Assembly (NCBI GenBank): GCA_964566925.1
Contig: CAZMIZ010000004.1
Coordinates: 35,951 to 99,950 of the forward strand
Length of the DNA: 64,000 bases
Direction of reading: 5' to 3'
Origin: an uncultured Gammaproteobacteria bacterium
GTDB lineage: Bacteria > Patescibacteriota > Microgenomatia > PFEM01 > DATLAM01
Each line of letters opens with the position of its first letter. Within the stretch, counting starts at the first letter, position 1. Under the pieces are notes generated by a model. The model did not search any database and was not told the origin of the DNA. It saw only the letters and a program-made list of their open reading frames with translations. Below, piece after piece: positions 12,531-48,591 of this stretch. Made by a program: the position numbers and the translations under genes.

Positions 12531-13255
12531 ATAAAAATCTTTGATTTCACTCCCAACGGCCGCAAAAGATATTTAAATAAAGTCAAAATTGTCATTAAGC
12601 CATAGCGAACTGACCGGACGAAGTTGATTGAAGAAGCTTCTGGAAAATAGCGCACCGGGACAGGGATCTCGCCAATGCTGAATCCGGCGGCCACCGCCGA
12701 AATTAAAATCTCCTGATCAAAAACAAAGTCATTAGAGAACTGCTGAAAAGGGAGGGTTCGTAAAACTTCACTCTTAAAGGCTCGAAAACCAGTATGGTAT
12801 TCAGAAAGGTTAAGACCTAAAACAATATTTTCCAAAATCGTTAAAAACCGATTAGAAAGATATTTATAAAATGGCATCCCCCCTTCAAGAGCTTCTTTTC
12901 GACTTCTAATCCGACTGCCTAGCATAATCTCAAACCGCCCATCAAGAAGAGGTTTAACCAAATCAGCCGTCAAGGTAGCGTCATATTGGTAATCTGGATG
13001 AATCATCACCACAATGTCCGGCTTTGTCTTTAACGCTTCCCAATAGCAAGTCTTTTGATTGCCACCATAACCCAAATTGGTTGGGTGAACAAAGACCTTC
13101 AGGCCCAGCTTTTTGGCGATCTTCACCGTCTTGTCCTGACTCTGGTCATCAACTAAGATTACCTCTTCTGCTAATCCTTGGGGAATATCGTGATAGGTCT
13201 TCTCCAGGGTTTTAGCCGCGTTATAGGCAGGCATGATAACCACTATTTTTTCCAT
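12527..13255 (-). CDS. GT2 polyprenol-phosphate sugar synthase-like (Dpm1/GtrB catalytic-domain type)
   Basis: IVVIMPAYNAAKTLEKTYHDIP...VILVDDQSQDKT...HPDYQYD. 242 aa, soluble. Confidence 0.7.
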   Translation of the reverse strand: MEKIVVIMPAYNAAKTLEKTYHDIPQGLAEEVILVDDQSQDKTVKIAKKLGLKVFVHPTNLGYGGNQKTCYWEALKTKPDIVVMIHPDYQYDATLTADLVKPLLDGRFEIMLGSRIRSRKEALEGGMPFYKYLSNRFLTILENIVLGLNLSEYHTGFRAFKSEVLRTLPFQQFSNDFVFDQEILISAVAAGFSIGEIPVPVRYFPEASSINFVRSVRYGLMTILTLFKYLLRPLGVKSKIFI

Positions 13256-14919
13256 AAGTTCCTTAACTGATAACCAATAAAAATTAAGGTCACTAAGGTC
13301 AGCGCTTCTCCTATTATTCTATCCCAGGTTTTTCCAAATTTAAAGAGAACTTCATGCTTCCCCGCCACCACAGGAATCCTCATTAGACCAGTCACTGTCG
13401 TGATTTCCATCTTTTCTTTTTGACCGTCAATGAATAACTCCCAGCCAGGATAATAGATGGTATTGAGAATCAATGAGCTTGCTTCTTTAACCCCGATCCG
13501 ATAAGCCTGAAGATTAGACCGCATCTCAACCACTTCAGTTTCCGCCTGACCGCCGGAACCGGTGACGGGCGTCTCCCTTCTAGGCAAATATTTAGGATTT
13601 ACCCAAAGAGGCCGATATTCATCAAAAGAACTGCTAGATGAGTAATGTTCTTGATAAAAACTGTCAGGCAGGTCAAGATATTGATTGACCCTCAAATGGT
13701 TTCGGTTGCCATAAAAAGTCAAAAACAAAAGTCCTAAAACCACCGGATAAAGAAAGCTCTTCAAGAGCCTTTCTTTTCTTAAAAGAGTCACCAGTCCCCC
13801 GGCAATTAAAGAAGAAAAGAGAGTCGTCAAAGCCAGGTAACGAAAGGGGAAATCAATTTTGAAAAACAAAGACATCATCTGCCAACAAGGCTTTGAAAGA
13901 GAAAGCATTAAAAAAATTGAGGTGGCGAAAAAGAAAACCAATAAACCGGCTAGTTTATGAAAAAATTCAAATTTTTCTTTTCTTATTCTTCGCCAAACTA
14001 AGAGAAAGAACATTAAGATAACAACTAGCCATTGAGCAATTCCGACTTGAAAGGACATCGCGTCTCTTTCAACCCCGGGATGAGAAAAGCCATAACCCCA
14101 AGGCGAGTAAAGGAGTTGCTTAAAATTAGGAAAATGTTGGGTGTAAAAATTGGTTAGCAACCGAGAAAACATCGCCCATCTTCTTTCTATCAATATCGGT
14201 AACCAGTAATAAGCCGATATTCCGGCGGCTAAAATGAAAAGCTTTAAATAGCGATAACCGACTTCCTTTTTCTTCCCGGTTTGCCAAAGGCAAAACCCTG
14301 CCAGAAAAACAAAAAAGGGCAAAAAAAGAAAGGTCAACATGGCATGAGAAAGCAAAAGTCCGGCTAAAGAGAAAGCGCCTATAAAAATAGCTTTTTGGTT
14401 TTCTTTTTCGCGAAGAGAAACGAGAGCCCAGATTGCCAAGGGAAAGAAAAAGAAGCAGACCGCCTCACCCAGACTGGCACGAACAAAAATAGTGGAAAAG
14501 CGCCAAGGGGCCCAAAGATAAAAAAGGGCTCCTATTAAAGCGGCCAAGCGATTACCCCAAATCTTTTTTTGGGCCCAATACATCACGATACCCGAAAAAA
14601 GATAGGCTAAGATGAAAACGGCTTTAATTGAATCACTCAAGGAAAGGCCCAGAAAACTGAAAAATGCTCCCAAGTAAAAGGGGAAACGATAGGTGAAAAC
14701 AAACAACGGATAACCGAAACCCCTAAAAGCGGGTGGGCCTGCCCAGCGAACCGGCCATTGGCCATCTTTTAGACCCACCAGAAAGTGATTAAGCCTAATC
14801 ATTTGGTGCTCGCCGTCGTGGCTGGTATAAAACCCGGGATGAAATAAAGCTTTGACGGCAAAAAGAGAAACCAAAAACAAAAAGAGGACAATCAACCAGT
14901 CAATTTTTTTGGATTTCAA
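13243..14919 (-). CDS. Large polytopic membrane protein, family 'A' (paralogs at 28647 and 31779); function unknown, possibly GT-C/PTPS-related-like
   Basis: N-terminal motif LFHPGFYTSHDGEHQMIRLNHFLVGLKDGQWPVRWAGPPAFRGFGYPLFVFTY is shared with two paralogs. Confidence 0.5.
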   Translation of the reverse strand: MKSKKIDWLIVLFLFLVSLFAVKALFHPGFYTSHDGEHQMIRLNHFLVGLKDGQWPVRWAGPPAFRGFGYPLFVFTYRFPFYLGAFFSFLGLSLSDSIKAVFILAYLFSGIVMYWAQKKIWGNRLAALIGALFYLWAPWRFSTIFVRASLGEAVCFFFFPLAIWALVSLREKENQKAIFIGAFSLAGLLLSHAMLTFLFLPFFVFLAGFCLWQTGKKKEVGYRYLKLFILAAGISAYYWLPILIERRWAMFSRLLTNFYTQHFPNFKQLLYSPWGYGFSHPGVERDAMSFQVGIAQWLVVILMFFLLVWRRIRKEKFEFFHKLAGLLVFFFATSIFLMLSLSKPCWQMMSLFFKIDFPFRYLALTTLFSSLIAGGLVTLLRKERLLKSFLYPVVLGLLFLTFYGNRNHLRVNQYLDLPDSFYQEHYSSSSSFDEYRPLWVNPKYLPRRETPVTGSGGQAETEVVEMRSNLQAYRIGVKEASSLILNTIYYPGWELFIDGQKEKMEITTVTGLMRIPVVAGKHEVLFKFGKTWDRIIGEALTLVTLIFIGYQLRNLWKK

Positions 14920-15839
14920 ACTTTCCCCCTGACCCTAGAATTGATTAGTTCTGGCAGTTGAGCCAGGGCCTTTCCCAGGCCTAACCAGAACAAGAAATCA
15001 GTAGAGAAGGTCGCTCTGATTAAGTGATACGGAAGCCAAAACAAATGGGGAATCAACATCTCTAAATTCGCGTTTTTCCAGACAAACAAAAATTGGTTCT
15101 TATAACCAAAAACTTTCATTTCTTTCTGACCAAATGTAGGGATATTGGTGGTTTCATGTCGGTGGTTAACCCTTGATCCTGGCTCAAAGACAACCCTCCA
15201 ACCTCTTTTTCTTGCCCGCCATGATAAATCAATGTCTTCCCAATAAGCGGGTCGGAAGAGAGGGTCCATTCCACCGAGTTTGAGCCATTTCTCTCGCTCA
15301 ACCGCCATACTGCCGGCAGTGGCCCAAAGAGTATCCCTTTTGTTTTGATCTTTAGCCCGCCAATGAACCAAAAACCCTCGTTTAAACTCTCCCAATCCCC
15401 GTCCACTATAAACCACTTTTCCATTTCTAATGTCTTTCTCTTTACAACCAACAGCAAAAACTAGAGAATCTTCAAAGTGTTTTAAAAGGGGTTCTAAAAA
15501 AGCTGGCTCCGGAGAGACGTCATTATTAAGAAGGACAACAATTTCTCCTTTGGCCGCTTTTACCCCAGTGTTACAAGCGGCCGCAAAGCGCTGGTTTTTT
15601 TGATGAACCATCACTCTAACTTGAGGATAATTCTTTTTTAAAAAGGTAACACTCCCGTCAGTGGAAGCATCATCAACCACAATAATTTCCCAACCTGCCT
15701 CGCCTGCCTTATCAACTGGCGGGTTGGATTTTGACCAGGTCTGACAGGCTTTGATCACCGCTGGCAAGTTTTTCTTCAAGAGTTCCTTGCCGTTGAAGTT
15801 GGGAATAACCAGACTGACTTTAATACCAGCCATATTCAA
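14916..15839 (-). CDS. GT2 glycosyltransferase (WbbL/rhamnosyltransferase-like)
   Basis: VSLVIPNFNGKELL...IIVVDDASTDGS...VLLNNDV. Alternative start at MAGIKV (15833). Confidence 0.75.
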   Translation of the reverse strand: MNMAGIKVSLVIPNFNGKELLKKNLPAVIKACQTWSKSNPPVDKAGEAGWEIIVVDDASTDGSVTFLKKNYPQVRVMVHQKNQRFAAACNTGVKAAKGEIVVLLNNDVSPEPAFLEPLLKHFEDSLVFAVGCKEKDIRNGKVVYSGRGLGEFKRGFLVHWRAKDQNKRDTLWATAGSMAVEREKWLKLGGMDPLFRPAYWEDIDLSWRARKRGWRVVFEPGSRVNHRHETTNIPTFGQKEMKVFGYKNQFLFVWKNANLEMLIPHLFWLPYHLIRATFSTDFLFWLGLGKALAQLPELINSRVRGKV

Positions 15840-18159
15840 AAGTTACTTGATGATTTCCTTCCGGGACAATCACTCCCCGGAAATTATAATCGGCCCGATA
15901 AATTTGAGTTCCTTGGCCGTCAATTTTTGCTTGCCAGCCGGGGTAAAAAGAATCAGTTAAAACCAAAATCCCTGACTGGCTGGTTTCCACCTCAATAAGA
16001 ACCTTGTTTTCTTCATAATCCAGAATGGCTACTTTATTTTCGCCTTTAACCAAACCCGTTTCAGGCTGATCGCTTTCCAAAATGACTGTCTCTCTTAAAT
16101 CAATCCCTTCATTCATTAATAAATCAATCGCTTCTTGCTTATCTTTAGCTAGTTGATATTGGTAAACTATAAAAGCCCGAGGAAAAACATTTTGGTTCTG
16201 ATAAACCTTAGTTTGGCCCTCTTCAAAAACCTTAACCCATTTAGGCGAATCTTCCTCATCTAGGCTTAAAAGATATTTAGTATTCAAAAGATCGATAATT
16301 CTTGATTCGTAATTATGAGGAGTAATAATTCGATTAAATCCAAATGGTGGTTCAATGTTGGCCTCTCCCCTTTCTGAGGCGGCGATGAGCTCAGCGTAGC
16401 GAGAAAGATACAAGGGATCATACCCTTCTATCGTTTGAAGCCTATAAGGAATTGAGAAATTGGGGGCCAAAAGACGGCGATCGGTGGTCATCAAGCGGAA
16501 AACGTCTTGATCTTTTTTCAAAAATTCAACCGTCTCGGTTGAAGGAAAAAGCCATTCTTCTTTAACAAAAGGAGTAAATTTCCAACCAAAACGGAGAAGG
16601 TCGAAGATGGTCAATAAGACAATTCCTATTAGAATTAAGAGTCGAGAATAACGAATTATGAATCTCTTTTTTTTGAATAGTTTCGGGGTTAACCAGCTGG
16701 CCACCATCAAACCAGCCAAGCCAGCAAAGATGGCCGTTGGCAAGATAAGGTTTCTTTGACTAACCGCCAAATTAACTACCCATGGAGCCTCTGGCCAAAT
16801 CTTTTTTGCTCCTAAAACAAAAAGCCATAAGAGACCATAAAAAATAGAAAATGGGATTAGGGTTAAGATTATTTTCCCCCAAGAGATTTTCTTTTTCAGA
16901 AAGGCATCGACGCCCAAGGCAGCCAAAACGGCGAGACAAAAATCAACGATAAAGAGCAGCCTAGTCGGTTGGCTAGTAGAAATCAACGGTAAGTTTAGCC
17001 AGTAGGGCAATTTTGCCCAGGGCGTGGGTAAAGCAAAACTTAAAAACAAAAAAACTAAGAAACTAAAGAATAAGGTTGTTTTATCGCGTCGCCAGATGAT
17101 AGCTAAAAAAGCAAAAATTAAAGGAATCACCCCCAGATATCCCAGGAACTCGGCGTAATTAAAAATCCCCCAATAATTCAAGGTGGTTGGGTTGCCAAAA
17201 AAATCAGGTGCTAAGAATTGAACTAGGTTTTGCCAAGGAATAAACCAGCCAGGTTGATTGAATTGAGACTGATCGATCTCTCTGGCGCTCAATTTAATAA
17301 ATTGAAGAGTGGGTAACCACTGGATTGAGGTAAGCAAAAGGAATAATGAATAAAGAAAACAGAACAGAAGAATTAGTTTGCGGCGATCTTTTTTAGTTTG
17401 GAGTAATCGCCAAACTAAATAGATAATCGAAAATAAAACTAAATAAAAAGAGGTCTGTAAATGGCCAGCCAAAAAAGAGACTGTAAGAGAAAAAACAAAG
17501 ACCAAACCCCAAAGTAGTAAATTTCCACTTTTACTTAATACTTGAGACTTAATACTTAAGACTATCTTGTCGATGGCCAGCAAAATTAAAGGCATCCATA
17601 AGGCCACCTGAAGAACCGTTCCCCATTCGAGCCAGGCAATAAAAAAGCCGGAAAGCGAAAAACTGATTGCCCCCAGAAAAGCGGCCAGCTTTTCTAGCTT
17701 TAGCTGGCGAAGATAAGCATAAAGGAAAAAGCCGGCCAAAAGCGGCTGAAGGAAAATTAGGCCACTCCAAGCCAAATTAAAAGGTAAAACAAAAAATAAA
17801 ATATTCAGAGGGTAAAAAACGGCCCCTTGAAGATTGGCTAAGAGTGGTCCCCCAGCTAAGGTATAAGGATTCCATAAAGGCAGTTGGCCCTGGGAAATTA
17901 AATCAATCCCTAACTCCCGCCAGGGATATTGTTGGCGCACCGGATCAGTGATTAGAAAATTTTTAAAAGGCACCCCGGCGGTGAAATTATCCCAGACAAC
18001 ATCTCTCCAGGGATGATACATGCCCACAATCGTGTCGGCTGGAAGAGGCAAGAGGCCACCAAGTAAAAATTGATGGAAAAAAATCGCCACTACTAGGCCG
18101 ATGAGGATTATCGACCAATGAGCAACGATCAAACTTTTAAGGCTTGATAATTTCATCAA
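15820..18159 (-). CDS. YfhO-family polytopic membrane protein (paralog 2)
   Basis: QYPWRELGIDLISQGQLPLWNPYTLAGGPLLANLQGAVFYPLN. Confidence 0.8.
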   Translation of the reverse strand: MMKLSSLKSLIVAHWSIILIGLVVAIFFHQFLLGGLLPLPADTIVGMYHPWRDVVWDNFTAGVPFKNFLITDPVRQQYPWRELGIDLISQGQLPLWNPYTLAGGPLLANLQGAVFYPLNILFFVLPFNLAWSGLIFLQPLLAGFFLYAYLRQLKLEKLAAFLGAISFSLSGFFIAWLEWGTVLQVALWMPLILLAIDKIVLSIKSQVLSKSGNLLLWGLVFVFSLTVSFLAGHLQTSFYLVLFSIIYLVWRLLQTKKDRRKLILLFCFLYSLFLLLTSIQWLPTLQFIKLSAREIDQSQFNQPGWFIPWQNLVQFLAPDFFGNPTTLNYWGIFNYAEFLGYLGVIPLIFAFLAIIWRRDKTTLFFSFLVFLFLSFALPTPWAKLPYWLNLPLISTSQPTRLLFIVDFCLAVLAALGVDAFLKKKISWGKIILTLIPFSIFYGLLWLFVLGAKKIWPEAPWVVNLAVSQRNLILPTAIFAGLAGLMVASWLTPKLFKKKRFIIRYSRLLILIGIVLLTIFDLLRFGWKFTPFVKEEWLFPSTETVEFLKKDQDVFRLMTTDRRLLAPNFSIPYRLQTIEGYDPLYLSRYAELIAASERGEANIEPPFGFNRIITPHNYESRIIDLLNTKYLLSLDEEDSPKWVKVFEEGQTKVYQNQNVFPRAFIVYQYQLAKDKQEAIDLLMNEGIDLRETVILESDQPETGLVKGENKVAILDYEENKVLIEVETSQSGILVLTDSFYPGWQAKIDGQGTQIYRADYNFRGVIVPEGNHQVTFEYGWY

Positions 18160-19201
18160 ACTTCTGGTAAAAAACTTCCTTTTTAAATCTTTGACTGTCT
18201 TTTATTGCTTGGCGAGAAAGGTTTTTCCATAAAGTCGGTGATTTTGATAGTCTGATGGTCAGCTTTTGAAGCTCTTTCTTTGTTTGCCAGAGGAAGCCAT
18301 TCCTGCCATCTTTGATGATTTCGGGAATGCCGCCTTTACCAATCACCACCGGCACATCACCAGCGGCCATCGCCTCGACCACTGAAATGCCGAAATGCTC
18401 CATTCGTTCAGGATATAAATTTTCGTCCTCGCCAAAACCAGCGGCGTGCCAATATATTTTAGCTCGATCATAATGTTTTTTTAATTCATCAAACTTAACG
18501 TTAGAGCGCACCTCAATCGGATATCCTTCGGCCGCTTTTTTAAGAGCCTTAAGATAGCCTTCATCCGCCTTTAACGCCCCTCCTAATAAGACTAAACGCC
18601 AACCTTTGAGGCCCTGATCATAAACTTTTCTAAAAACCTCAACTAAAATATGCTGCTTCTTAGCATGAAGTGCCTGGGTAAATCGGCCCACCGAAAGAAT
18701 CAGGTTTTCTTTTTTATCTGGTTTAAAATCTTCGACGGAAACCGGCGGATAAATGACTTGGCTTTGGACGCCATACTCCTGGTCAATATATTTTTTGGTG
18801 AATTTCGAGTTACAGACAATTTGGCTAAATTTGGCTAATTTTATTTTGTTTAAAAGGGATTTCCCGTTAACTCTAGTAAAAGGGACCTGAAAATGAAGGA
18901 TGTTTTTCTTGGCAAATAAAAAGGGCAGACTGCCGTCAGATAAATAAAAAACTAGATCGTAATTCCTGGTGATCTGCCATTTATGAACAACATTTCTATT
19001 CGAGGAAAAAATATTCTCAACAAAACTAATTTTGCCTAAATCAAGGTCAAATCTTTCCTTTAACTTTTTCTTTATCTGTTCATCATCCCAAAAAAGATCT
19101 ACTTGATGATCCTGATTGCTTAAATGTTCGGCAAGAGTAAGGACATATTTTTCTCCTCCTCCCAAACTGTTAAGATACGGGTTGAATAAACCAATTTTCA
19201 T
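18137..19201 (-). CDS. GT4 glycosyltransferase
   Basis: MKIGLFNPYLNSLGGGEKY...HFGISVVEAMAAGDVPVV. Start at 19201 gives an ATGA overlap with the upstream stop. The ORF extends to 19228. Confidence 0.8.
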   Translation of the reverse strand: MKIGLFNPYLNSLGGGEKYVLTLAEHLSNQDHQVDLFWDDEQIKKKLKERFDLDLGKISFVENIFSSNRNVVHKWQITRNYDLVFYLSDGSLPFLFAKKNILHFQVPFTRVNGKSLLNKIKLAKFSQIVCNSKFTKKYIDQEYGVQSQVIYPPVSVEDFKPDKKENLILSVGRFTQALHAKKQHILVEVFRKVYDQGLKGWRLVLLGGALKADEGYLKALKKAAEGYPIEVRSNVKFDELKKHYDRAKIYWHAAGFGEDENLYPERMEHFGISVVEAMAAGDVPVVIGKGGIPEIIKDGRNGFLWQTKKELQKLTIRLSKSPTLWKNLSRQAIKDSQRFKKEVFYQKFDEIIKP

Positions 19202-19956
19202 TTCTTGTCTCCCCGCTGCATTTCCCATAAACGAGCGTAAATGATAAAGGTATTAAAGGTTTCAAAAATGGCATTGATCCAACCCTCGGTGCCATCGCGC
19301 CAACCGCCTTGCTTGACGATTCTTTCAAAAAACTTAGTCGCCATCATTCGTAAAAACCGCCACCAAACTACCGGAGGATGCTTCGCCTGGTAAAGAAGCC
19401 TGGCTTCAATCTTGGTCCATTTAATGGTTTTATTCAACATCGAGGTTAAATCTCGATGAGTTAGGTGGATAATGGGATTCTCTAGCTTGCCCGCTTTTCC
19501 CTCAAAAATCGGCCATTCATGAAGTTGGTCCTGCCAACCTTTTAATTTACTTTTTCTAAAAAGTCTTTGAACATAATCTGGCCAAGCACCCCCATGTTTC
19601 ATTTCCCGACCCAGAAAAAAATTGCGCCTCGGGATTTTATAAGCCGCAAACTTATTCTTGGCGATCACCCGCTGAATTTCCTCTCTTAACTGAGGCGTCG
19701 CTCTCTCATCGGCATCCAGATATAAAATCCAGTCGCCTTTGGCTTTTTCTTTGCCTAAATTACGCCACCGAGCAAAGGCCAAACTTTTTGATTTAGCTTC
19801 AACGATCCTCGCCTGATACTTTTTGGCAATCTTCAGAATCTTATCAGTTATCCCGGTATCCACCAGAACAATCTCGTCAGCCCATTTAACTGATTCCAGG
19901 CAGTCACCGATAACTTTCTCTTCATCCTTGGCTAAGACAATCACACTCAATTTCAT
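19198..19956 (-). CDS. GT2 glycosyltransferase (paralog group)
   Basis: MKLSVIVLAKDEEKVIGDCLESVKWADEIVLVDTG...YLDADE...HGGAWPDYVQRLFRKSK. The ORF extends to 19983. Confidence 0.75.
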   Translation of the reverse strand: MKLSVIVLAKDEEKVIGDCLESVKWADEIVLVDTGITDKILKIAKKYQARIVEAKSKSLAFARWRNLGKEKAKGDWILYLDADERATPQLREEIQRVIAKNKFAAYKIPRRNFFLGREMKHGGAWPDYVQRLFRKSKLKGWQDQLHEWPIFEGKAGKLENPIIHLTHRDLTSMLNKTIKWTKIEARLLYQAKHPPVVWWRFLRMMATKFFERIVKQGGWRDGTEGWINAIFETFNTFIIYARLWEMQRGDKK

Positions 19957-20020
19957 CTTAATCCTAATTATACCTCGTTTCACTCAGGTAATCTCTTAGA
20001 TTATACCTTGCCTTACTGGT

Positions 20021-21967
20021 TTAATCTACTTTATAGACGGTCACTTTTTCATTAGTAAAAACGATTGAAAGGGGCAATTTGGTCGGCGAAAGATCCGTTT
20101 CGTCAGTAGTTAAAAGGTAGAGGTAGGCAATGTTATTCTGCTTTAAAAAAGCTCGCTGAAATTCTAAATCATCGGTAATAAAGAAATCTTTTGAAAGGTC
20201 AATCCGGTGTTGATAATCTTCACCGGTAATGGCCGCTGGGATAACATCCGAAAAATAACTTCTCTTCCCTGAAAGAGCGCTGACATACATCCAAGCCAAA
20301 TTGTTCTTATTAGGATAAAGAAGGACCACCGCTTCATCATCAGGTTCTTTTCCCAAAAGAGATAAAGCTTCTAACTCTTCATAAGGAATGGCGGTTGGCG
20401 CTACCGGCGAAGTAAAGAAACCAACCAACATTTTTAGACTCGAAGGGACAGCCAATAAAAAGATTAAAAGAAGAAGAGTTAATTTTTGCCAGCTAGTTCT
20501 CTTTTGGATAAGCTTCATTATCGCCATAGTCGTAAAGAAATTCATTATGATTAAGAAATAAAAAGCAAACTGGATGGTATTGGCCACACTGCCCTTTTGA
20601 ATAAAAAACAGAGGAAAAAGAAAAGAAATGAAAGCGGCCACCAGAAGAAACAATTGGCTCAAGCTAATTTTAAAACCCTTAGAAATCACCAAAAGAAGCC
20701 CACCAAACCCCAAGATTCTAACCCCTAAATTGCCGGTGAGGAAAATCAGGAATTCCATGACTCTCAACCTGAGCAGACCAAGCGAGTCGCCAAGCGTGAT
20801 GTAAGTATTCTCCCGTAAAACCCAGTCGGGCAGGTTAAGACGATCAGCGTTTTCCATCATCGCTCTTAAAAACCAGCCGGGAGCAAAAATAAAGAAATTT
20901 TCGGTGGGACGGTAGTTCGGCAGAAAAACAATCAGGGCAACTGCCAAGGAAGCAATAAATAGCCATAAAACCTTAATCCTTTTATAAAAGATTATCTCAA
21001 CCAAACTAACGGTCAAGAGGGTCCCTAAAGCGATTACTCCTCCATAAGATTTAAATCCAATCAGCATGCCGAGAGTTAAACTGGCTAGCACCAAAACAGA
21101 GAGACTTTTTTCTTTTAAGTATTTCAAAAAAAGAAAAAAGCCAACTAAAAAGATTGGGAGGGAAAGAGCAAATTGAGGATTATAAAGAGCGGCATGGGTT
21201 TGGTTGATCCAAAAAGAAAAATCGCTCCAGGGAGTTCCCGATCCCCTTAAAAGAGGCAAAAAATAACCAAAGTTGCCACAAAAATAAGTGAGGAAAACCA
21301 CCAGATTAGCGGCCACCTCACTTTTTAAGAAAGAACGGGCCGCGATAAAGGCAGCCAATCCCAGAAGCAAAGAGATTAAAATCGGGAAAAAGCGAAAGTA
21401 TAAATCTAATCCAGATAGTTTCGTTAAATTAGAAAAGCCGGCCACTAGCAAATCATAAAAAAAATGATAGTTAGTTAATCTCTCGCTAGCAAAGCCAGGG
21501 TGTTCAGGCGGAAAATGACTTTTTAGCTCATTAATCAAAGCCAAGTGCCAAAAAGCGTCGTGAATCTCCCCTTTAAAAGCAAGACCCTTATCGTTTTCTA
21601 AACCGCTAAAAAAAACGATTGATCCTTGAACAACGATCCCTAAAACCACCAGCAAAATCAGAAAACGATGAGGCGGTTTTAAGCTCATTTTAAAAGATGG
21701 AAAAACCTTTTTTCTCCTCTCCCAGAAGTTTAAAAGGGCAATCAAGCTTAAACCGGAAACCAGCCAGCCTGTCAGATAACGAAGATTTAAAAAACCTAAA
21801 AGATAATTCAGACTCGTAAATAAAAGCAAGCCGCTAATTAAGGAAATCGTTATTGCCTCTAGTCGAGAAAGTTTAAGACGGAGACAGTAAAGAACTAACC
21901 AACCAGGCAAATAAAAAAAGAAAACAACCCCGAGCCCAAAAATTAAAAGGTCAACAAGAAAGCTCAT
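20021..21967 (-). CDS. Large polytopic membrane protein, unknown (possibly GT-C-like)
   Basis: 648 aa, >12 hydrophobic segments, no motif recognised. Confidence 0.4.
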   Translation of the reverse strand: MSFLVDLLIFGLGVVFFFYLPGWLVLYCLRLKLSRLEAITISLISGLLLFTSLNYLLGFLNLRYLTGWLVSGLSLIALLNFWERRKKVFPSFKMSLKPPHRFLILLVVLGIVVQGSIVFFSGLENDKGLAFKGEIHDAFWHLALINELKSHFPPEHPGFASERLTNYHFFYDLLVAGFSNLTKLSGLDLYFRFFPILISLLLGLAAFIAARSFLKSEVAANLVVFLTYFCGNFGYFLPLLRGSGTPWSDFSFWINQTHAALYNPQFALSLPIFLVGFFLFLKYLKEKSLSVLVLASLTLGMLIGFKSYGGVIALGTLLTVSLVEIIFYKRIKVLWLFIASLAVALIVFLPNYRPTENFFIFAPGWFLRAMMENADRLNLPDWVLRENTYITLGDSLGLLRLRVMEFLIFLTGNLGVRILGFGGLLLVISKGFKISLSQLFLLVAAFISFLFPLFFIQKGSVANTIQFAFYFLIIMNFFTTMAIMKLIQKRTSWQKLTLLLLIFLLAVPSSLKMLVGFFTSPVAPTAIPYEELEALSLLGKEPDDEAVVLLYPNKNNLAWMYVSALSGKRSYFSDVIPAAITGEDYQHRIDLSKDFFITDDLEFQRAFLKQNNIAYLYLLTTDETDLSPTKLPLSIVFTNEKVTVYKVD

Positions 21968-22872: not shown

Positions 22873-22879
22873 AAGGAGT

Positions 22880-25922: not shown

Positions 25923-26047
25923 ACAATCATTTTAACACAAAATCTCATTCTCATCCCGACGCAATAGGACAATTTTCGAACCGTGAAGTGGATATAAATT
26001 ATTGAATGAATATCCTGAAGCAATAATGGGGTCGTTTCAATAATTGT

Positions 26048-26548
26048 TTAATTTGTAACCCTTCTAAAATACTCACTATACAAGGGTTCCAAGCCGTGTT
26101 TCTCAAACAACCTCTGGGCAACTTTGTTAAAGGTGTAGATCCTTGTTTTTATGACTTCTATTCCGTTCTTTTTTGCAATATTGATAGCCTTTTCGATTAA
26201 CTGACTAGCTATTCCCTGCCTTTGATGTTCTTCTTTTACTGCCAAATCATCTAAATAATAAGCCTTTTTATTTTTGAAAAAATTTTCTAATTCAACTTCA
26301 TCTACTTTTAAAATTCCTACAATCTCTCCATCTTTTTCTGCTACTAATACAAATTCACCTTTTCTTTTTAGTGCCTTTTCAAAATATTTAGAAAGACTAA
26401 TATTTGCCAAAACATCTGCTTCTATAAACTCGTCTTCGTTCTTTGCATGACTTAACCACATTGGTCGAAGGAAAAATTCTAGAGCATTCAAGTCCCCTTT
26501 TTGGAGATACCTCACAGTAACTTTTTCATTAAACGCTTTTTTGACCAT
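26048..26548 (-). CDS. GNAT-family N-acetyltransferase
   Basis: QRQGIASQLIEKAINIAKKNGIEVIKTRIYTFNKVAQRLFEKHGLE is an acetyl-CoA binding motif A region. Confidence 0.8.
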   Translation of the reverse strand: MVKKAFNEKVTVRYLQKGDLNALEFFLRPMWLSHAKNEDEFIEADVLANISLSKYFEKALKRKGEFVLVAEKDGEIVGILKVDEVELENFFKNKKAYYLDDLAVKEEHQRQGIASQLIEKAINIAKKNGIEVIKTRIYTFNKVAQRLFEKHGLEPLYSEYFRRVTN

Positions 26549-26622
26549 CTTATAAAGTATACCAAAATTCGATTCCTAACTGAAACTTTTAATTTAACAG
26601 GGTTCTCACCCCTAGGGCCTTT

Positions 26623-27054
26623 TTGGTTTATGATAAAATCTTTTTAGAGAAAGAGGATCTAGTGGGAGAAAAAAACGAAAGACAGTTGACTAAACTCGGA
26701 CTTTTAATCAAAGGTATTTTAAACCTTCTTCTTTTCGGCTTATTCTTGCTTTTTATTCCTGTTAAATACTTTTCTTGGTTAGGCTTAACAGATTTCCCAC
26801 CTTTATTCCTAAAACTAGTTGGCATTTCCGCCTCTTTCTTGGGAACCATCTACATCAAAGCCGCTCTCCAGCCAAAAAGATTTAAAATTATTGCCAGAAT
26901 TACCTATCTTGATGCCTTAATTTACCCAATCGTGATTTTGCTTTTAGGCATTTTTCTAAAGCTTCCCTGGTCGATTTGGCTTAGCGCCTTATTGGTAGGA
27001 ATAGCCGCCATCCTCCTGATCATCGGCAAAGGACACAAACATCTTTTTAAATAA
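26623..27054 (+). CDS. Small hypothetical membrane protein (3-4 TM)
   Basis: It is the only plus-strand ORF in the first 45 kb. Hydrophobic segments only. Confidence 0.35.
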   Translation: MVYDKIFLEKEDLVGEKNERQLTKLGLLIKGILNLLLFGLFLLFIPVKYFSWLGLTDFPPLFLKLVGISASFLGTIYIKAALQPKRFKIIARITYLDALIYPIVILLLGIFLKLPWSIWLSALLVGIAAILLIIGKGHKHLFK

Positions 27055-27055
27055 G

Positions 27056-28684
27056 CTAGTTCAAGTCTTGTCCCGCAGATAAAGGAAGAAAAAAGCCGAA
27101 TTTTTGGATTTCTTCAATCTGTTCGGGTTGAAGGTTGTCTAGCTTGTCTCTTCTCATTAACAAAGGCGAGGGATCATTCCCCTGGCGTAACTGGATGTAA
27201 TCAGCCACCACCGGATCAAAAACGCTTTTGGCGGCCTCGCCAACACTAGAGTATTCATAATAAACAAAAACAGGAGGGTTTCCCTCTAGGTCGTTTTTAA
27301 TTTCGTTTTTTAATCCTTCATTCCAGAAAATCCATTCATAGTAATAAAGAAAGCGATTTTGAGGACTAAGACCGCTAACAAAATACAAAAGCTGTTCAAC
27401 GGGAATCACCATTAGCTTATCATTGCTAGAAGCAAGGTTTCTAATCGCCTGGCCGGTTCCCTCTAAATAAGAAAAGTTCACCCAAAAATCGCGATAATAA
27501 TCCGGTTGGCGAAAATATTCTCTAAAGAAAAACTGGCCGGTAAAGGCAAAAATTAAAATCATCAGAATTAAACCGGCGAAGGTTAGAGTTCTTTTTTTAA
27601 CCGACTGCCAATTCAGCAAGAAAACCCTTTTAATTTGAAGAATAGTCAGGATGATTATCGCGGCCCACCAGGGGAAGCCATGAAAGCCTTCATACAAAAC
27701 CGCTTGAGGATAGACCAAGCGCAAACTGGTGGTCCCGAGCAGAAAAAAACTAAAAACCAGGAATAATTTCTTTTTCTTTTCTTTAAAAAGTAAATACACA
27801 AAGCTGAGAAGGTAAAAACCACACCAGATTTTGGCAAAAAGGCCAAAATCTCCCTTGACAGGCTCAATCAGGGCGATAACCGGCTTTAAAAAAGAATAGG
27901 CCAAAAGACGAGATGCCCCTTGATTGGCGGTATCTTCAAGATAATGGCTGGTGAGTGCCGCCTTAGTATTAAGAAAATATTCTTGATAGCTAACAAGAGG
28001 AGAAAAGAGAAGGAAAAGGAAACCAAAAAAAAGAATTAGGGGGAGGACGATTTTCTTATGAAATTTCTCCCTGACAAGAAGATAGAAAATCAGGATCGCG
28101 GAAAAAGGGATCAGAATAATCAACTGGAAAGGAATTAAAACCAAACTAAAGAGAAAGAGGTATCGCCCCCAGCTATTAATCGGCCCCTTGGCTAACTCTT
28201 TTTTCCAAAGATAGGCAAGAACAAAGGCAAGAGGGTAAATTACCAGCGACTCGCCCAAAAAAAGATCGCCCAACAAAAGCCTTTTTATCAGCTCTATCAC
28301 CAGAGAAAAAGTGAGACCAGCGGCGCCGAAAAAATAAAGAAACCCCAGCCACCAGAGAACCGAATAAAAGAAAACCGCCTCCCGGTGTCTTTTAATAAGG
28401 AGAAACAAAGAATTAGGCTTTAAGGTCTTATTAATTAAGGCGCTGAAAGCCGCGGGCATCGGCTGTTTGTGGGAAAAAATATCAGCGTAAAGTTTCTGGC
28501 CTTGGGCCAGATAATGGCCAGCCATCAAATTTTCGTCTTCGTCAACAAAATGAGTGTTAAACATATGAGACTGAAGCGTCCGGAAAGCAAAAAAGACCAA
28601 ACCAAAAAAAATGATAACCAAGAATATTTTTTTTAATAAAGAAAGATCAGCTGAAGATTTTTTTAGCACCCAACCCCCCTCCAA
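27056..28684 (-). CDS. Large polytopic membrane protein, unknown
   Basis: 542 aa, many TM segments. N-terminal region HFVDEDENLMAGHYLAQGQKLYADIFSHKQPMP. Confidence 0.4.
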   Translation of the reverse strand: MEGGWVLKKSSADLSLLKKIFLVIIFFGLVFFAFRTLQSHMFNTHFVDEDENLMAGHYLAQGQKLYADIFSHKQPMPAAFSALINKTLKPNSLFLLIKRHREAVFFYSVLWWLGFLYFFGAAGLTFSLVIELIKRLLLGDLFLGESLVIYPLAFVLAYLWKKELAKGPINSWGRYLFLFSLVLIPFQLIILIPFSAILIFYLLVREKFHKKIVLPLILFFGFLFLLFSPLVSYQEYFLNTKAALTSHYLEDTANQGASRLLAYSFLKPVIALIEPVKGDFGLFAKIWCGFYLLSFVYLLFKEKKKKLFLVFSFFLLGTTSLRLVYPQAVLYEGFHGFPWWAAIIILTILQIKRVFLLNWQSVKKRTLTFAGLILMILIFAFTGQFFFREYFRQPDYYRDFWVNFSYLEGTGQAIRNLASSNDKLMVIPVEQLLYFVSGLSPQNRFLYYYEWIFWNEGLKNEIKNDLEGNPPVFVYYEYSSVGEAAKSVFDPVVADYIQLRQGNDPSPLLMRRDKLDNLQPEQIEEIQKFGFFLPLSAGQDLN

Positions 28685-30374
28685 CCAAAACGATCGCCGC
28701 TAATAAGGAAACCAAGTTGGCTAAACTGCGCACCGGCGTGTCGGTAAAGACGACCTCGACCTGATGTTCCCCTTCAGGAACATCCAAACTGATCAGTTTC
28801 AACTTACCTGATTCCTGAATCCCAATCTCTTCTTGATCAAGAAAAGCTTTCCAGCCGGGAAAATTATAAACATTAACTCTCAATTCTCCTTGACCTTTTG
28901 TGGTCAAGATTTTTTGATGAGGAAAGTCTTTAACTACTTCAACTTCTAAATCGCCGGTTAAGGCTTGATAGGCTGTCTTGCCAATTCCCTCCTCGGCGAT
29001 ATCCAGCTGGGTGGTACCAATATCAGATAATCTGGTGGCCACTCCTTTGGGAACAAATTCAAAAGAAAGCCCGCTCACTCGCCATTTCAAATCCTTTTCA
29101 GAAGTATAATCACGATCACCAACTTCAAGATAATCAGCAGGCTGAAAATAGGCCTGATTTGAAAAGATAACCAAAACTAAAGGAACTAAAACCGCTCCCC
29201 ACTGAAGAACTCTTTTCCCTTTAAGCTGCTTAAAAATGAAATTGACGCCTCCACCCACAAGCAGAGAAGAAAAAAAGGCGGCTAAGATCAGAAAACGCCA
29301 GGGAAACTGAAGATACCAAAGAGGCTGAATTCGATCCCAGATTAGCTGGGAACGAAAACTGGTCATGAAGAGGGAAAGAATAAAGAATAAAGAATAAAGA
29401 ATAAAGAATAAGCCAGTCTTTTTTCTTTTCAAAAGTAAATAAGGGCCCAAAATACTTGCTAAGAAGCTTAAAATTAGGTGGAGTTTGCCCACTTCGAAGG
29501 AAATCCCGTCCTCCAAGCCCATGATTGAACCACCATAACCCCAGGGGGAATCCCAAAGCTGGCGCAGGTAAACAAAATGAAGCTTATAGTTGGCCAGCTC
29601 ACCGGTCAAAATGGTATCCACTAAGGTTTCTTTCTTCTCCCAAAGGGCTGGCAACCAAAAATAACAGGTAAGGCCTAAAAACAAGATAAACGACACCGAG
29701 ACTAACCAAACTGCTCTTTTCTTTACTTTCTCAAAGAAAAGAAAGAAGAGAACGAAGGCAAAATAAAAGGGCATCAGGATCAGGGCAATGAAGTTATGGC
29801 TTAAAAGCAGAAGAGATAAAAAAAGACTATTGATTATCAACCATTTAATGTTTTTTCTTTTAATCAGCTTGAAGGTTGACCAAAAAACAGCCGGCAAAAA
29901 AACAAAAGTGTAGAATTCGGCAAAGGCACCCCGGACATAAAGATCTAGGGCGTGATACGGTGCATAAATGTAAAAAGCGGCCGCCCCTAAACCGCCAACT
30001 TTCCCAAAAAATTCTTTGGCCAAAAGATAAATAAAAATCCCGGAAAGGATAAACCCCAACCCCATAACGATTTTAGTCGAAACAATTAAGGAAAAACCAA
30101 GCCAATAAAAAATCTCGCCTAAATAATAAACTAAGGGAGGGTAAAAGTTAAAAAGAGGATAGCCATACCCAAAGCCTAAATTCCCTACCCAGCGAGGTGG
30201 AAACTGACCGCCAGTTAAAGCCTGATCAAGTTCGTAAAGTCGAGCAATCTGCTCATCATCATGCATCGGGAAAAAACCGGGAAGAAGGAGAGGTCTAATC
30301 GCCCAAAAAGATAAAAGGAGAATGGCTAACAGCCACCAATGGTTTTTAATTAGAGCGCTTAATCTATTCTTCAT
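28647..30374 (-). CDS. Large polytopic membrane protein, family 'A' paralog 2
   Basis: LLLPGFFPMHDDEQIARLYELDQALTGGQFPPRWVGNLGFGYGYPLFNFYPP. Contains an in-frame (AAAGAAT)5 repeat. Confidence 0.5.
   Translation of the reverse strand: MKNRLSALIKNHWWLLAILLLSFWAIRPLLLPGFFPMHDDEQIARLYELDQALTGGQFPPRWVGNLGFGYGYPLFNFYPPLVYYLGEIFYWLGFSLIVSTKIVMGLGFILSGIFIYLLAKEFFGKVGGLGAAAFYIYAPYHALDLYVRGAFAEFYTFVFLPAVFWSTFKLIKRKNIKWLIINSLFLSLLLLSHNFIALILMPFYFAFVLFFLFFEKVKKRAVWLVSVSFILFLGLTCYFWLPALWEKKETLVDTILTGELANYKLHFVYLRQLWDSPWGYGGSIMGLEDGISFEVGKLHLILSFLASILGPYLLLKRKKTGLFFILYSLFFILSLFMTSFRSQLIWDRIQPLWYLQFPWRFLILAAFFSSLLVGGGVNFIFKQLKGKRVLQWGAVLVPLVLVIFSNQAYFQPADYLEVGDRDYTSEKDLKWRVSGLSFEFVPKGVATRLSDIGTTQLDIAEEGIGKTAYQALTGDLEVEVVKDFPHQKILTTKGQGELRVNVYNFPGWKAFLDQEEIGIQESGKLKLISLDVPEGEHQVEVVFTDTPVRSLANLVSLLAAIVLVGGGLGAKKIFS
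29375..29412. repeat. (AAAGAAT)x5.4 heptanucleotide tandem repeat inside the family-A membrane protein CDS (encodes FFILYSLFFILSLF)
   Basis: Read directly: aaagaat x5 + aag. Confidence 0.9.
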
Positions 30375-31782
30375 TGTTTATCCAGTATAAGCGGCTTTCA
30401 CCTCTTGATTTTACCAGATTTATCCTGCCCTCGTTTTCCATATTTTCAACCGCCTCTCTTAGCTCAACTTCCGAATTAACCAAAAGATGGGTAATTGCCT
30501 GGCCTGGATGGAGATCAACAATCAAATATTCGGGGTTTCCTGACCAAAAAAGCCACCAGCGATCATTTTCCTTTCGCGGCCAAGCGAGGTAGATTTCGTC
30601 TCGGTGAGCCAGGTGAGGCACGAGGTTATTCTGAGCCACCACCGGAGCTTTCTCTTTAATCACCGAGAGAAGTGCTTGATTATTTTTCATCCACTCCTCT
30701 TCTTGCCAAAAATAGGACTTGCTCAATCGATTTAAGGGTAAATGGAGGTAATATTGGAAGAAGAGAGCCGGTAAAATAATCAAGAAAGTCAGATAAAAGA
30801 GTTTTAGTTTACTTTTCAGAAAAACAAGGCCTTCAATTGTTCCCCAAACCAAAAAAGGACCCAAAGAAGCCCGATAGTGCATGAAAAGCCCCCAGGTGCC
30901 CGCGTACTTCTCTCCGGCCAGAAAATGTTGAGCTAAGTCAATCAAGACCGGAATTAAAGTCTGGGGCGCTAAAAGCGGTAAAAAAGAAAACCAGGCTAAA
31001 GAATAAAACCAGGTTTCTAGCTTAACTCTTGGCCAAAACATTCCCTGAAAAAAACCTAATAAGTTTTGAGGCAAGCTGGGTTGATACTCATAGCCAATCG
31101 GTGAAAATAAAGGAATAATGCTTTTTGTCACGAGCAGAAAATAGGTAAAAGAGGCAATAATCATTAATAGCCCCTTCTTCTGTTGCCTTAAAAGCGAGAC
31201 TAAACCCAGGGCCAAGATCATCAATGCCAAGTTCTCTTTCAACCCCACAAATAAAACCGCCGAAAGACTAAATTTCAGCCAATCTTGCTTGTCCCAAAAA
31301 TAAATCAGCCAAGGGGCTAATCCGGCCGCAACCACGCTAGCATGGAAATCAAAATTAAGCGCGTGTTGAAAGCCGAAAAAAGCTAAATAAAGCCCAGTCA
31401 CGAAGAAGCTAGTAAGAACAGGCAGTTTTTTTCTCTTGGCTAAAAGGAAAACCGGATAAGCCGAAAAGGCCAGCCAAAAAGCCTGAAAAAGTAAAAGGGC
31501 GTGGACATCGTTCCAAAGCCAGTAAAGAGGGGCTAATAAAACCAAGGTGGGGGCAAAGTGATCGCCAAAAATATGTTTTCCTTTAAGGGTATTCCAGGGA
31601 ATTTTCAGCTGACTATATTGCCAGATCGTTTGATCAAAGATGCCTAGATCATAAGCAAATGAGTCAAAGCGTTGATGTCGCCTGATAGAAAGCAAACTAT
31701 AAAGAAGGCCAAAAACAACGATTAAAAAAATCAGGAAAACGACCTGCTTGTTCTTGACCAACCTAAAGATTTTCTTTTTCAT
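30364..31782 (-). CDS. DUF2079-like polytopic membrane protein
   Basis: N-terminus IRRHQRFDSFAYDLGIFDQTIWQYSQ resembles the DUF2079 signature. Confidence 0.5.
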   Translation of the reverse strand: MKKKIFRLVKNKQVVFLIFLIVVFGLLYSLLSIRRHQRFDSFAYDLGIFDQTIWQYSQLKIPWNTLKGKHIFGDHFAPTLVLLAPLYWLWNDVHALLLFQAFWLAFSAYPVFLLAKRKKLPVLTSFFVTGLYLAFFGFQHALNFDFHASVVAAGLAPWLIYFWDKQDWLKFSLSAVLFVGLKENLALMILALGLVSLLRQQKKGLLMIIASFTYFLLVTKSIIPLFSPIGYEYQPSLPQNLLGFFQGMFWPRVKLETWFYSLAWFSFLPLLAPQTLIPVLIDLAQHFLAGEKYAGTWGLFMHYRASLGPFLVWGTIEGLVFLKSKLKLFYLTFLIILPALFFQYYLHLPLNRLSKSYFWQEEEWMKNNQALLSVIKEKAPVVAQNNLVPHLAHRDEIYLAWPRKENDRWWLFWSGNPEYLIVDLHPGQAITHLLVNSEVELREAVENMENEGRINLVKSRGESRLYWINNEE

Positions 31783-33425
31783 CTCCTTTTGATCATTAGA
31801 CCGAGGATGGCTGTCAAACCAAGAAGAGAAACAAGGTCAGCTAAAAGCCTGATTGGTGTCTCCTTAAAAACCATCACTGCCTGATGAGCCCCGGGTTCAG
31901 CTTTTATTCTCATTACTCCTTTTTGATTCTGATAGTCTAAAGAGGTTTGGACACCATCAATCGTTGCTTTCCAGCCAGGGAAATAATGACTATTGATCTG
32001 GATTTCGGCTTCGGTTTCCGTCTCGAGATCAAAGTTAATCTTCTTAGAATCAAAAACTAGATTTTCAATCGTTCCTCTGCCGGAAACAATTTCCACCTTT
32101 TCTTCGGCCCGAACCAGAGGCGGCTCCTCAACCCAAATTGGCAAATATTCATTGGCAACCGTGGTTGTGCCTTCGTTAGTCACATAATAATCTTCTCCTC
32201 GGTCAACAAAGTATTCCGGGTGAGTGTAACCATAATTTAGGAAAATCAAAAAGATCACACCTATGATCACCACCCAGGCCCTCAAACGAGGTCTAATTAA
32301 GTGGACCAAGGCCCCTATTAAAACTGCCGAAGCAAAGGTGGTTAAACCCAGAAGTCGCCAAGGAAATTGAATTAAATTATAAATTGGCAGAAGACGCCAA
32401 ACCCAAGAAGAAGCCCCTAACATTAAAAAGAAAGAAACAAGAGCAACCAAGAGAAAGCAAAAGGTTTGAAAATTTTTCTTTAAATGTTCTTTTCTTTTAG
32501 CCGCCTTAATTAAACTTAAGCCGAAGATCAGAGCACCGACGAAAAAGACAATTAAATTGATTACCCCCAACTGGAAGGAAAGCGTGTCTTGATCGGAAAG
32601 CGGCAGAGAAGGACCGTATCCCCAGCCAGGAACAATCAGTTGGCGAAGGGTAGGAAAGTGGAGAAAGAAATTGCTGACCGTCGCTTGATCAAAAAAAACA
32701 AATTGTTTGTCATATAAGGCTGGCAGCCAGAAAAAGCAAGAGAGCATCAAACCAAGAAAGAAAATAACCAGTTGCCGCCCAAAAACCTTGGTCTGACGGA
32801 AAAGCAACCAGCGAAAAACAACCCAACCGCCAAAAACTAAACTGAAAAGCATCGCCATCGTATTATGCGAACTAATCAGGCCAGCAAAAGCTATCGCCCC
32901 CAGGGCCAGATAATACTTATTCCATTTTTTAACCAACTTCGTGGCCGACCAGAAAATCAAGGGCGGGAAAATAAAGGCCACCGCTTCTCCTAGCGAACCC
33001 CGAACATAAACATCTAAAAAACGATAAGGAGTGTAAATATAAAGAAGGGCACTCGCCATTCCGGCCCATTCTCCCCAATCCTCCCGAAGCCAAAGATAAA
33101 TAAAGACTCCGGAAAGCACAAAGCTAAGGATAAAAACCAGCTTGATCGCGTTAACAAAGCTGCCCAAAAAAAGATAAAAAAATTCACCGAGATAAAGAGA
33201 AAAGGGATAAAGAAAGTTAAAAACCGGATAGCCATAACCATGATTAAGTCGAGCGGCCCAGCGCACGGGAATTTGCCCAGAAACCAGACTGCGATGAAAA
33301 TCAGAAAGCCGAATGACCATCCATTCCCCATCATGAGAAGGGAAAAAGCCGGGATGAAAAAGACTCCAAACTGCTGGCAGGGAAAGAATAAAGACCGCTA
33401 ACAGGAAAAGTATTTTCTTTTTCAT
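31779..33425 (-). CDS. Large polytopic membrane protein, family 'A' paralog 3
   Basis: Start MKKKILFLLAVF at 33425 makes an ATGA overlap with the upstream stop. Motif LFHPGFFPSHDGEWMVIRLSDFHRSLVSGQIPVRWAARLNHGYGYPVFNFLYP. Confidence 0.5.
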   Translation of the reverse strand: MKKKILFLLAVFILSLPAVWSLFHPGFFPSHDGEWMVIRLSDFHRSLVSGQIPVRWAARLNHGYGYPVFNFLYPFSLYLGEFFYLFLGSFVNAIKLVFILSFVLSGVFIYLWLREDWGEWAGMASALLYIYTPYRFLDVYVRGSLGEAVAFIFPPLIFWSATKLVKKWNKYYLALGAIAFAGLISSHNTMAMLFSLVFGGWVVFRWLLFRQTKVFGRQLVIFFLGLMLSCFFWLPALYDKQFVFFDQATVSNFFLHFPTLRQLIVPGWGYGPSLPLSDQDTLSFQLGVINLIVFFVGALIFGLSLIKAAKRKEHLKKNFQTFCFLLVALVSFFLMLGASSWVWRLLPIYNLIQFPWRLLGLTTFASAVLIGALVHLIRPRLRAWVVIIGVIFLIFLNYGYTHPEYFVDRGEDYYVTNEGTTTVANEYLPIWVEEPPLVRAEEKVEIVSGRGTIENLVFDSKKINFDLETETEAEIQINSHYFPGWKATIDGVQTSLDYQNQKGVMRIKAEPGAHQAVMVFKETPIRLLADLVSLLGLTAILGLMIKRR

Positions 33426-48589: not shown

Positions 48590-48591
48590 TT

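Follow-up and report, generated by a model that had tools for sequence, protein, structure and literature searches.

The 64,000-nucleotide stretch analysed here, termed the window, is part of contig CAZMIZ010000004.1 of NCBI GenBank assembly GCA_964566925.1, deposited as an uncultured Gammaproteobacteria bacterium and placed by GTDB in the Patescibacteriota. It contains three related membrane-protein genes, termed paralogs A, B and C (Table 1), which are likely to encode glycosyltransferases of the GT-C type. All three lie in a ~44-kb array of 33 genes (970-44971), all on the minus strand and nearly all overlapping or less than 40 bp apart, with only two gaps of more than 100 bp. At least 13 of these genes are Pfam-recognisable as GT-C-type: one PIG-V-like, five PMT/PMT_2, three YfhO, A, B and C themselves, and one DUF2079. 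The array also holds nine GT2 and two GT4 genes, a Wzx flippase, sugar-nucleotide genes, and four polytopic proteins that lack any Pfam match.

Paralogs, clades and conserved gene modules

An earlier, sequence-only reading of this DNA had described three paralogous open reading frames (ORFs) at this locus, and they are found on the minus strand as described, encoding 548-575 aa. Full-length alignments of the three proteins give pairwise identities of 30-35%, and BLAST comparisons among them give 200-290 bits, far above chance. By these alignments, A, B and C are real paralogs. The N-terminal motif set quoted in that reading occurs in all three, as HPGFYTSHDGE / GQWPVRW / GFGYPLFVF in A and HPGFFPSHDGE / GQIPVRW / GYGYPVFNF in C, while B departs from it slightly (LPGFFPMHDDE / GQFPPRW / GYGYPLFNF). 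Gene A starts with a TTG codon preceded by GGGGGA. The ORF of C extends to 33503, but a start at 33425 was judged better: GGAGG lies 9 nt before it, its ATGA overlaps the preceding YfhO gene by 4 nt, and the resulting protein has the Lys-rich N-terminus typical of the family.

The family has three members in the window and thousands in the databases, so that its description as a three-member family holds only locally. A profile of A, B and C, searched first, matched over 120 proteins in the database at E<1e-123, and these carry labels such as "hypothetical", "YfhO family" and "GT39". When HMMER was run exhaustively with a profile of 76 sequences, 29,475 cluster representatives (clustering at 50% identity) matched at E<=1e-3, of which 8,305 reached E<=1e-30. 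In the list of the top 120, A-, B- and C-type proteins stand at 117:2:1, a ratio that does not measure abundance; the list includes the window's A and neither its B nor its C. The window's B is nonetheless in the database (P0376), and the candidate step apparently favoured A-type sequences.

A neighbour-joining tree rooted on YfhO divides the family cleanly into clades A, B and C with 51, 28 and 32 members, respectively. Clades A and C are sisters, and clade B is the first to branch. On this tree, the triplet is ancient and not the product of local duplication.

Gene context was sampled at 80 loci from species-representative genomes. The informatively named loci belong to Microgenomates-type bacteria of the Candidate Phyla Radiation (CPR), namely Gottesman-, Levy-, Collier-, Davies-, Woese-, Beckwith- and Chisholmbacteria, with a few from Saccharimonadales and Paceibacterota. 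A spread to Proteobacteria was considered and rejected, since the loci tagged "uncultured Gammaproteobacteria", "Pseudomonadales" or "Vitreimonas" have GC contents of 32-43% and CPR-type gene content. Such labels occur on L002, L003, L015-L017, L020, L028, L029, L042 and other loci, and judging from these sequences they probably reflect mislabelled bins or placeholder taxonomy.

In the sampled loci, the three genes are organised as two modules. Among 49 A-type genes, 38 have a GT2 gene resembling dolichol-phosphate mannose synthase (DPMS) within 300 bp, and 41 adjoin a GT2 gene of some kind. In the window, the GT2 partnered with A has a single sequence relative in the Protein Data Bank (PDB), the Pyrococcus dolichol-P-mannose synthase 5mlz (E 4.4e-8). 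The second module is a tandem: in 26 of 27 cases, the gene immediately before a B-type gene is a C-type gene in the same orientation, and a B-type gene follows 26 of the 28 C-type genes that do not lie at an edge. A GT2 comes after B in 19 of 27 loci, often followed by Wzx. The window retains the order C ... B ... Wzx-GT2; a DUF2079 gene is inserted between C and B, which are directly adjacent elsewhere, and a Pfam-less membrane gene and a GNAT gene come after B.

In some genomes, the tandem is joined into one polypeptide. Protein P0121 (1,116 aa; 5001-8351 of locus L081) is a single-ORF fusion of C and B present on two contigs, and it occupies the slot of the gene pair in the order PMT_2-PMT_2-[C.B] ... 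Wzx-GT2. Protein P0122 (1,093 aa; 5001-8282 of L082 and 1531-4812 of L083) contains two modules of the family, and was recovered from an NCBI metagenome-assembled genome and from independent Logan assemblies. These two fusion clusters constitute support of the Rosetta-stone type and suggest a functional, possibly physical, partnership between C and B. This two-module organisation, with a fixed and occasionally fused C→B pair, is the main new result of the sequence comparisons. It means that the earlier proposal that three copies imply three specificities was too simple, as the three copies form one module of A with a DPMS-like GT2 and another of the C→B pair.

Other fusions of the family module were also observed. 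It is joined to PIG-V-like or PMT_2 modules in P0075, P0182 and P0259-P0266, where proteins combining the family with PMT_2 have ~900 aa (for example in Chisholmbacteria), and polypeptides with multiple GT-C modules reach 3,329 aa (P0125).

Family assignment and predicted fold

The Pfam model PF10131 (PTPS_related) scores 19.1 bits against A, 30.7 against B and 43.1 against C, with a gathering threshold of 26.4. The HMMER match is limited to positions 1-308 of the 621 in the model. A Pfam scan of the 76 family members at E<=1e-3 assigned PF10131 to 37, YfhO to 17 and PMT_2 to 4. Homology over the full length was seen when the 76-member profile was aligned by hhalign with twelve PF10131-annotated Chloroflexi proteins of ~1,000-1,050 aa. 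This alignment has 100% probability (E 2.8e-79) over 530 columns, pairs family positions 9-551 with target positions 18-580, and spans the loop-1 Asp and Arg, GxFPVRW, GYGYP, SHN, PWRFL, the YWPGW β-domain and the anchor helix. The CPR proteins end after the anchor helix (~550-575 aa). The Chloroflexi/Anaerolineae proteins match them along their entire length and then continue outside the membrane for ~450 more residues. The guess "PTPS-related" in the sequence-only reading is thus borne out, by scores above threshold for B and C and by this end-to-end match. Its companion statement, that the proteins could not be placed in a named family, goes too far: PF10131 is homologous end to end, and NCBI records of B-type proteins are already titled "6-pyruvoyl-tetrahydropterin synthase-related protein" or "GT39".

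The next-nearest family is YfhO (PF09586), which is also the nearest relative that has been functionally studied. With hhalign, the family core matches the three YfhO proteins of the window at 99.4% probability (E 2.8e-21), and residues 454-556 of A match the YfhO C-terminus at 98.7% (E 4e-16). In the Pfam scan, C alone matches YfhO, at the C-terminus only, and with 10.1 bits it does not reach the threshold of 28.5. YfhO proteins (B. subtilis and S. aureus YfhO, Listeria Lmo1079, PgtC2, PgfM1/PgfM2) share the plan of the CPR family, with a GT-C core and an outside domain between the last two transmembrane (TM) helices, and both families end in a YPGWxAxxDG β-sandwich and an anchor helix. The CPR version is truncated: ~560 aa compared to ~780-860 aa, 12 TM helices compared to 13, and an outside loop of ~130 residues compared to ~390 (~389 in B. 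subtilis YfhO). The idea of the family as a "mini-YfhO" was dropped as its primary class, the match to PF10131 being far stronger, and residue-level equivalence between the first extracytoplasmic loop of the family and that of YfhO is not claimed, as hhalign gives it only 19%.

The "GT39" tag used by NCBI is not justified, because A, B and C have no match to the Pfam PMT (PF02366) or MIR domains, because the PMT_2 match is marginal and confined to B (27.6 vs 26.1), and because hhalign of the family profile to the PMT-type pair of the window reaches a probability of only 11.6%. Pmt1, Pmt2 and Pmt4 (GT39) are 9-15% identical and have a MIR domain that A, B and C lack. An NCBIfam scan of the family returned nothing meaningful, and a PDB sequence search with the family profile found no relevant match. 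On the basis of these profile comparisons, the three paralogs form a compact branch of PF10131 that is specific to the CPR.

Hydropathy, the positive-inside rule and AlphaFold secondary structure agree on 12 TM helices with both termini in the cytoplasm. A Lys-rich inside N-terminus leads into TM1, which is followed by an outside loop of ~60 residues, ten TM helices, an outside β-sandwich of ~130 residues, the anchor helix and a basic inside C-terminus. This topology would place both the conserved loop-1 Asp and the β-domain on the outer side of the cell.

AlphaFold2 models were built from family alignments for A and B, with a predicted local distance difference test score (pLDDT) of 94.1 and a predicted TM-score (pTM) of 0.93 for A, and 93.2 and 0.92 for B. 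The class GT-C_A is defined by a 7-TM core, two juxtamembrane helices (JM1 and JM2) between TM1 and TM2, a kinked TM3, and a catalytic Asp at the tip of JM1 (PMC12041299). Model A has TM1 at residues 5-26, JM1 at 36-51, JM2 at 79-89, TM2 at 94-121 and a TM3 split into 124-135 and 138-146 at the invariant P138. Model B has the same elements, so that two JM helices and a kinked TM3 are present in both. An Asp directly ahead of JM1 (D35 in A, D39 in B, D32 in C) corresponds by position to the catalytic Asp of the definition.

In structural comparison, solved GT-C enzymes rank at the top for both models, whose 12 TM helices fall within the range of 7-13 for polytopic proteins of this class. Model A scores 22.7 with Pmt4, 20.8 with STT3B, 20.7 with Pmt2, 18.8 with AftA, 18.3 with PglB, 17.9 with AftD, 17.6 with ArnT, 17.5 with AglB, 17.1 with ALG12 and 16.9 with ALG9, and DPY19, AftB, GPI mannosyltransferase, PIG-U, ALG6, ALG3 and PimE come next. 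Model B draws the same set (STT3B 20.4, Pmt4 20.0, Pmt2 19.2, PglB 18.0), and Foldseek concurs. The nearest solved structures remain distant, with identities of 8-15% and a TM-score of ~0.4. The guess of a GT-C-like protein made in the sequence-only reading is supported as well. This confident fold-level assignment to GT-C_A, based on predicted models, is new for this branch of PF10131. A, B and C belong to GT-C_A and, in the broad sense, to PF10131, and not to YfhO (PF09586) or PMT/GT39 by the criteria of those families.

Conservation was counted over the 111 members of the three clades. Universal columns (in A numbering) are the His-Asp pair, Arg42, G69-Y70-P71, K99, P160, H192, P241, W274 and G293. 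R42 is 100% conserved across the three clades, and H34, K99 and H192 are conserved at 81-100%. The loop-1 Asp has no exception (100%) in any of the three clades, and is an invariant acidic residue of the kind the earlier reading had proposed to look for. D35, D39 and D32 are, on alignment and model, the candidate catalytic Asp.

Proposed function and its alternatives

It is likely that A, B and C are catalytically competent membrane glycosyltransferases of the GT-C_A fold, which transfer sugars from polyprenyl-phosphate carriers to an extracytoplasmic envelope acceptor. This interpretation is drawn from their paralogy, their homology to PF10131 and YfhO, the placement of PF10131 in the Pfam GT-C clan (CL0111), the GT-C_A hallmarks, the invariant outside Asp, the pairing with DPMS-like GT2 genes, the C→B tandem and the single-ORF C.B fusions. 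The transfer mechanism is proposed because multi-component systems work in this way, including CsbB/GtcA/YfhO, GtrA/GtrB/Gtr*, ArnC/ArnT and the GT136 pentofuranose systems, which place a GT2 polyprenyl-P-sugar synthase beside a GT-C transferase. YfhO genes similarly pair with CsbB-type GT2 genes that make a C55-P-sugar, and the Pgf operon has two YfhO-type genes. These systems are compact three-gene cassettes, while the modules described here belong to the ~44-kb array, among at least 13 genes of the GT-C type, and the dedicated small GtrA flippase gene of such cassettes does not adjoin A, B or C.

By analogy, a cytoplasmic DPMS-like GT2 would load a monosaccharide onto polyprenyl (undecaprenyl-type) phosphate, the lipid-linked sugar would be flipped across the membrane, and the GT-C enzyme would move the sugar to an extracytoplasmic envelope acceptor. 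In this scheme, the Asp at the JM1 tip may act as catalytic base or nucleophile, R42, K99 and H192 probably hold the lipid phosphate, and the β-sandwich probably aids acceptor binding. A and its adjacent DPMS-like GT2 would form one module, while C and B would cooperate sequentially or as a complex.

Several points weigh against this proposal. Paralog A falls below the PF10131 threshold, and PF10131 itself, listed in that clan, is described as of "function unknown" (PMC7801869). Literature searches on PF10131, "PTPS-related", COG5617 and CPR GT-C/YfhO found no functional study. The Asp/Glu-His reported near the first TM helix stands as a universal His-Asp, but clade A does not retain the Glu of "HDGE", which leaves a classical DXD/DXE motif there without a conserved second acidic residue. 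The role of the candidate Asp is assigned from its position and invariance, and for a physical C-B complex the synteny and rare fusions are only suggestive. None of the three genes has a separate GtrA-type flippase gene beside it, and the array offers only a GT2-GtrA fusion (41530-42735) and Wzx. Moreover, donor and acceptor are proposed only as classes, a polyprenyl-P-sugar and an envelope acceptor.

Among acceptors, an envelope glycopolymer is favoured over protein because of the kinship with YfhO, the locus rich in Wzx, GT2 and GT4 genes, and the β-sandwich. The strongest alternative keeps the same enzymology and exchanges the acceptor, so that A, B and C would carry out PMT-like O-glycosylation of Ser/Thr/Pro-rich linkers in surface proteins. 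It is a serious but less probable alternative. Pmt4 and Pmt2 are among the top structural matches, but STT3, AftA, AftD and ArnT score nearly as high, and the fold does not tell acceptors apart. The YfhO-type proteins PgtC2 and PgfM1/M2 of streptococci glycosylate Ser/Thr-rich regions, as Pmt does in actinobacteria; however, the MIR or TPR domains that bind acceptors are absent here. TP-rich surface proteins are encoded in the window at 55802-58846 and 22880-23554, but candidate acceptors lie more than 20 kb away and are not conserved neighbours in the loci examined. In addition, the Wzx, the many GT2 and GT4 genes and the sugar-nucleotide genes of the locus are typical of polysaccharide assembly.

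A bolder extension of the glycopolymer proposal, which we regard as rather doubtful, is that C and B are obligate subunits of one GT-C enzyme, in the manner of Pmt1-Pmt2 or EmbA-EmbB, which occasionally becomes a single fused chain, and that together with A and the ~10-14 other GT-C genes of the array it would assemble a complex CPR envelope glycan stepwise on the outer face from polyprenyl-phosphate monosaccharides. If true, an ultra-small bacterium would possess an assembly line in the style of mycobacterial arabinan, whose founding enzymes would establish a new family in CAZy.

It is improbable that the proteins transfer oligosaccharides en bloc from polyprenyl-diphosphate carriers, in the manner of an oligosaccharyltransferase (OST), ligase or polymerase. 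The most conserved neighbour is a DPMS-like GT2, a maker of monophosphate donors; YfhO, the closest sequence relative with genetics, uses C55-P-GlcNAc; and no periplasmic domain of the OST type was detected, the window proteins having no Pfam match to STT3. Still harder to accept is that the proteins, or at least one member of the C/B pair, are non-catalytic proteins of the GT-C fold, such as PIG-U-like scaffolds, flippases for the lipid-linked sugar or acceptor-presenting partners, since the JM1 Asp is invariant in all clades together with the conserved R42, K99 and H192, and since catalytic GT-C enzymes score twice as high as PIG-U in structural comparison. A role in pterin metabolism, which has only the Pfam and NCBI name in its favour, is effectively refuted by the fold predictions, as no soluble PTPS domain was detected by Pfam in A, B or C, the whole chain is filled by a 12-TM GT-C fold with its core, β-sandwich and anchor, and PF10131 is filed by Pfam in the GT-C clan.

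PF10131 is one of the largest GT-C families for which no experimental study was found in the literature searched; the CPR branch alone accounts for the 8,305 clusters at E<=1e-30 noted above. Its database labels are inconsistent, ranging from hypothetical, "YfhO family" and "GT39" to "pterin-synthase-related". Microgenomates-type CPR genomes are ~1 Mb in size. The ~44 kb given to extracytoplasmic glycosylation takes up far more of a small CPR genome than is usual and points to an elaborate envelope glycan, which is probably central to the attachment of episymbionts to their hosts. With confident models, a single candidate Asp, defined donor-synthase partners and a C→B pair that is naturally fused in some genomes, the family is open to experiment, and its characterisation would probably add a GT family to CAZy, as was the case for GT136. 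The present assignment is useful for CPR envelope biology and CAZy classification, and is no surprise to glycobiologists.

Neighbouring genes in and around the array

Table 1. Coordinates of the three paralogs, their predicted functional parts and selected neighbouring genes in the window
Feature	Position	Strand	Description and basis
Paralog A	13243-14919	minus	558 aa; predicted PF10131-family GT-C_A glycosyltransferase, A-type clade
Paralog B	28647-30374	minus	575 aa; B-type clade, first to branch of the three
Paralog C	31779-33425	minus	548 aa; C-type clade, sister to A; PF10131 43.1 bits
First extracytoplasmic loop of A (residues 27-93)	14641-14841	minus	JM1 36-51, JM2 79-89; H34-D35, R42, GQxPxRW, G69-Y70-P71; topology, DSSP of model, conservation
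Residues 405-558 of A	13246-13707	minus	Predicted extracytoplasmic β-sandwich (strands 452-528) and C-terminal TM anchor (532-557); DSSP
Codon of A D35	14815-14817	minus	Proposed catalytic Asp at tip of JM1; codon verified; matches GT-C_A rule
Codon of B D39	30258-30260	minus	Equals A D35; invariant in 58-sequence alignment; codon verified
Codon of C D32	33330-33332	minus	Equals A D35 by three-protein alignment; codon verified
GT2 partnered with A	12527-13255	minus	13-nt overlap; likely polyprenyl-phosphate sugar synthase; Pfam Glycos_transf_2
GT2 directly upstream of A	14916-15839	minus	4-nt overlap; Pfam; weak relative of chondroitin synthase
DUF2079 membrane protein between C and B	30364-31782	minus	Pfam PF09852, E 6.5e-53
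Polytopic protein	27056-28684	minus	542 aa; 38-nt overlap with 3′ end of B; no Pfam match
Wzx-type flippase (24471-25922) and GT2 (23539-24474)	23539-25922	minus	Pfam; usual followers of the C→B pair elsewhere
YfhO-family gene directly upstream of C	33422-35833	minus	Pfam YfhO
Other YfhO genes	10062-12530, 15820-18159	minus	Pfam YfhO; the three YfhO genes have E 7e-30, 4e-32, 4e-24
Two further DPMS-like GT2s	40789-42735	minus	Pfam; 41530-42735 full length with GtrA/DPMS TM domain

The full-length GT2 fused to a GtrA/DPMS domain matches 5mlz at E 1.3e-29 and also matches ArnC. The four polytopic proteins without Pfam matches are encoded at 3166-4653 (495 aa), 20021-21967 (648 aa), 27056-28684 (542 aa) and 37345-38529 (394 aa), all on the minus strand. 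Single-sequence hhalign comparisons gave them probabilities of at most 61% against the family, YfhO and PMT profiles, and they may be further GT-C-like enzymes. A scan of 12000-31999 for promoter and terminator consensus sequences gave counts near the shuffled expectation and was uninformative on operon boundaries. The 502-aa ORF at 5590-7098, which begins with TTG, runs 287 nt into the upstream PMT gene (6812-8434), and its true start probably lies downstream, near "MAKKQLKLLEKF".

In the middle of the array, 22880-23554 (minus) encodes a protein of 224 aa that lacks a Pfam match, is anchored at its N-terminus and has a linker rich in Thr and Pro; it could be an acceptor or an accessory factor. 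Further off, the minus-strand region 54286-58846 encodes a sortase (55281-55850) and a CAP-domain protein, along with two proteins that contain linkers: an fn3 protein, in which the linker is TPTPTSTLTPTPTPTTPPS, and a surface protein of 704 aa, in which the linkers are PT-rich. Speculatively, these proteins are plausible O-glycosylation substrates of some of the GT-C enzymes. The array is also flanked, at 46157-49905 (minus), by dTDP-rhamnose genes (RmlD, RmlC-like and RmlB) and a gene for an NAGPA-like phosphodiester glycosidase (48592-49905), whose predicted products hint at rhamnose-containing, phosphodiester-linked glycans.

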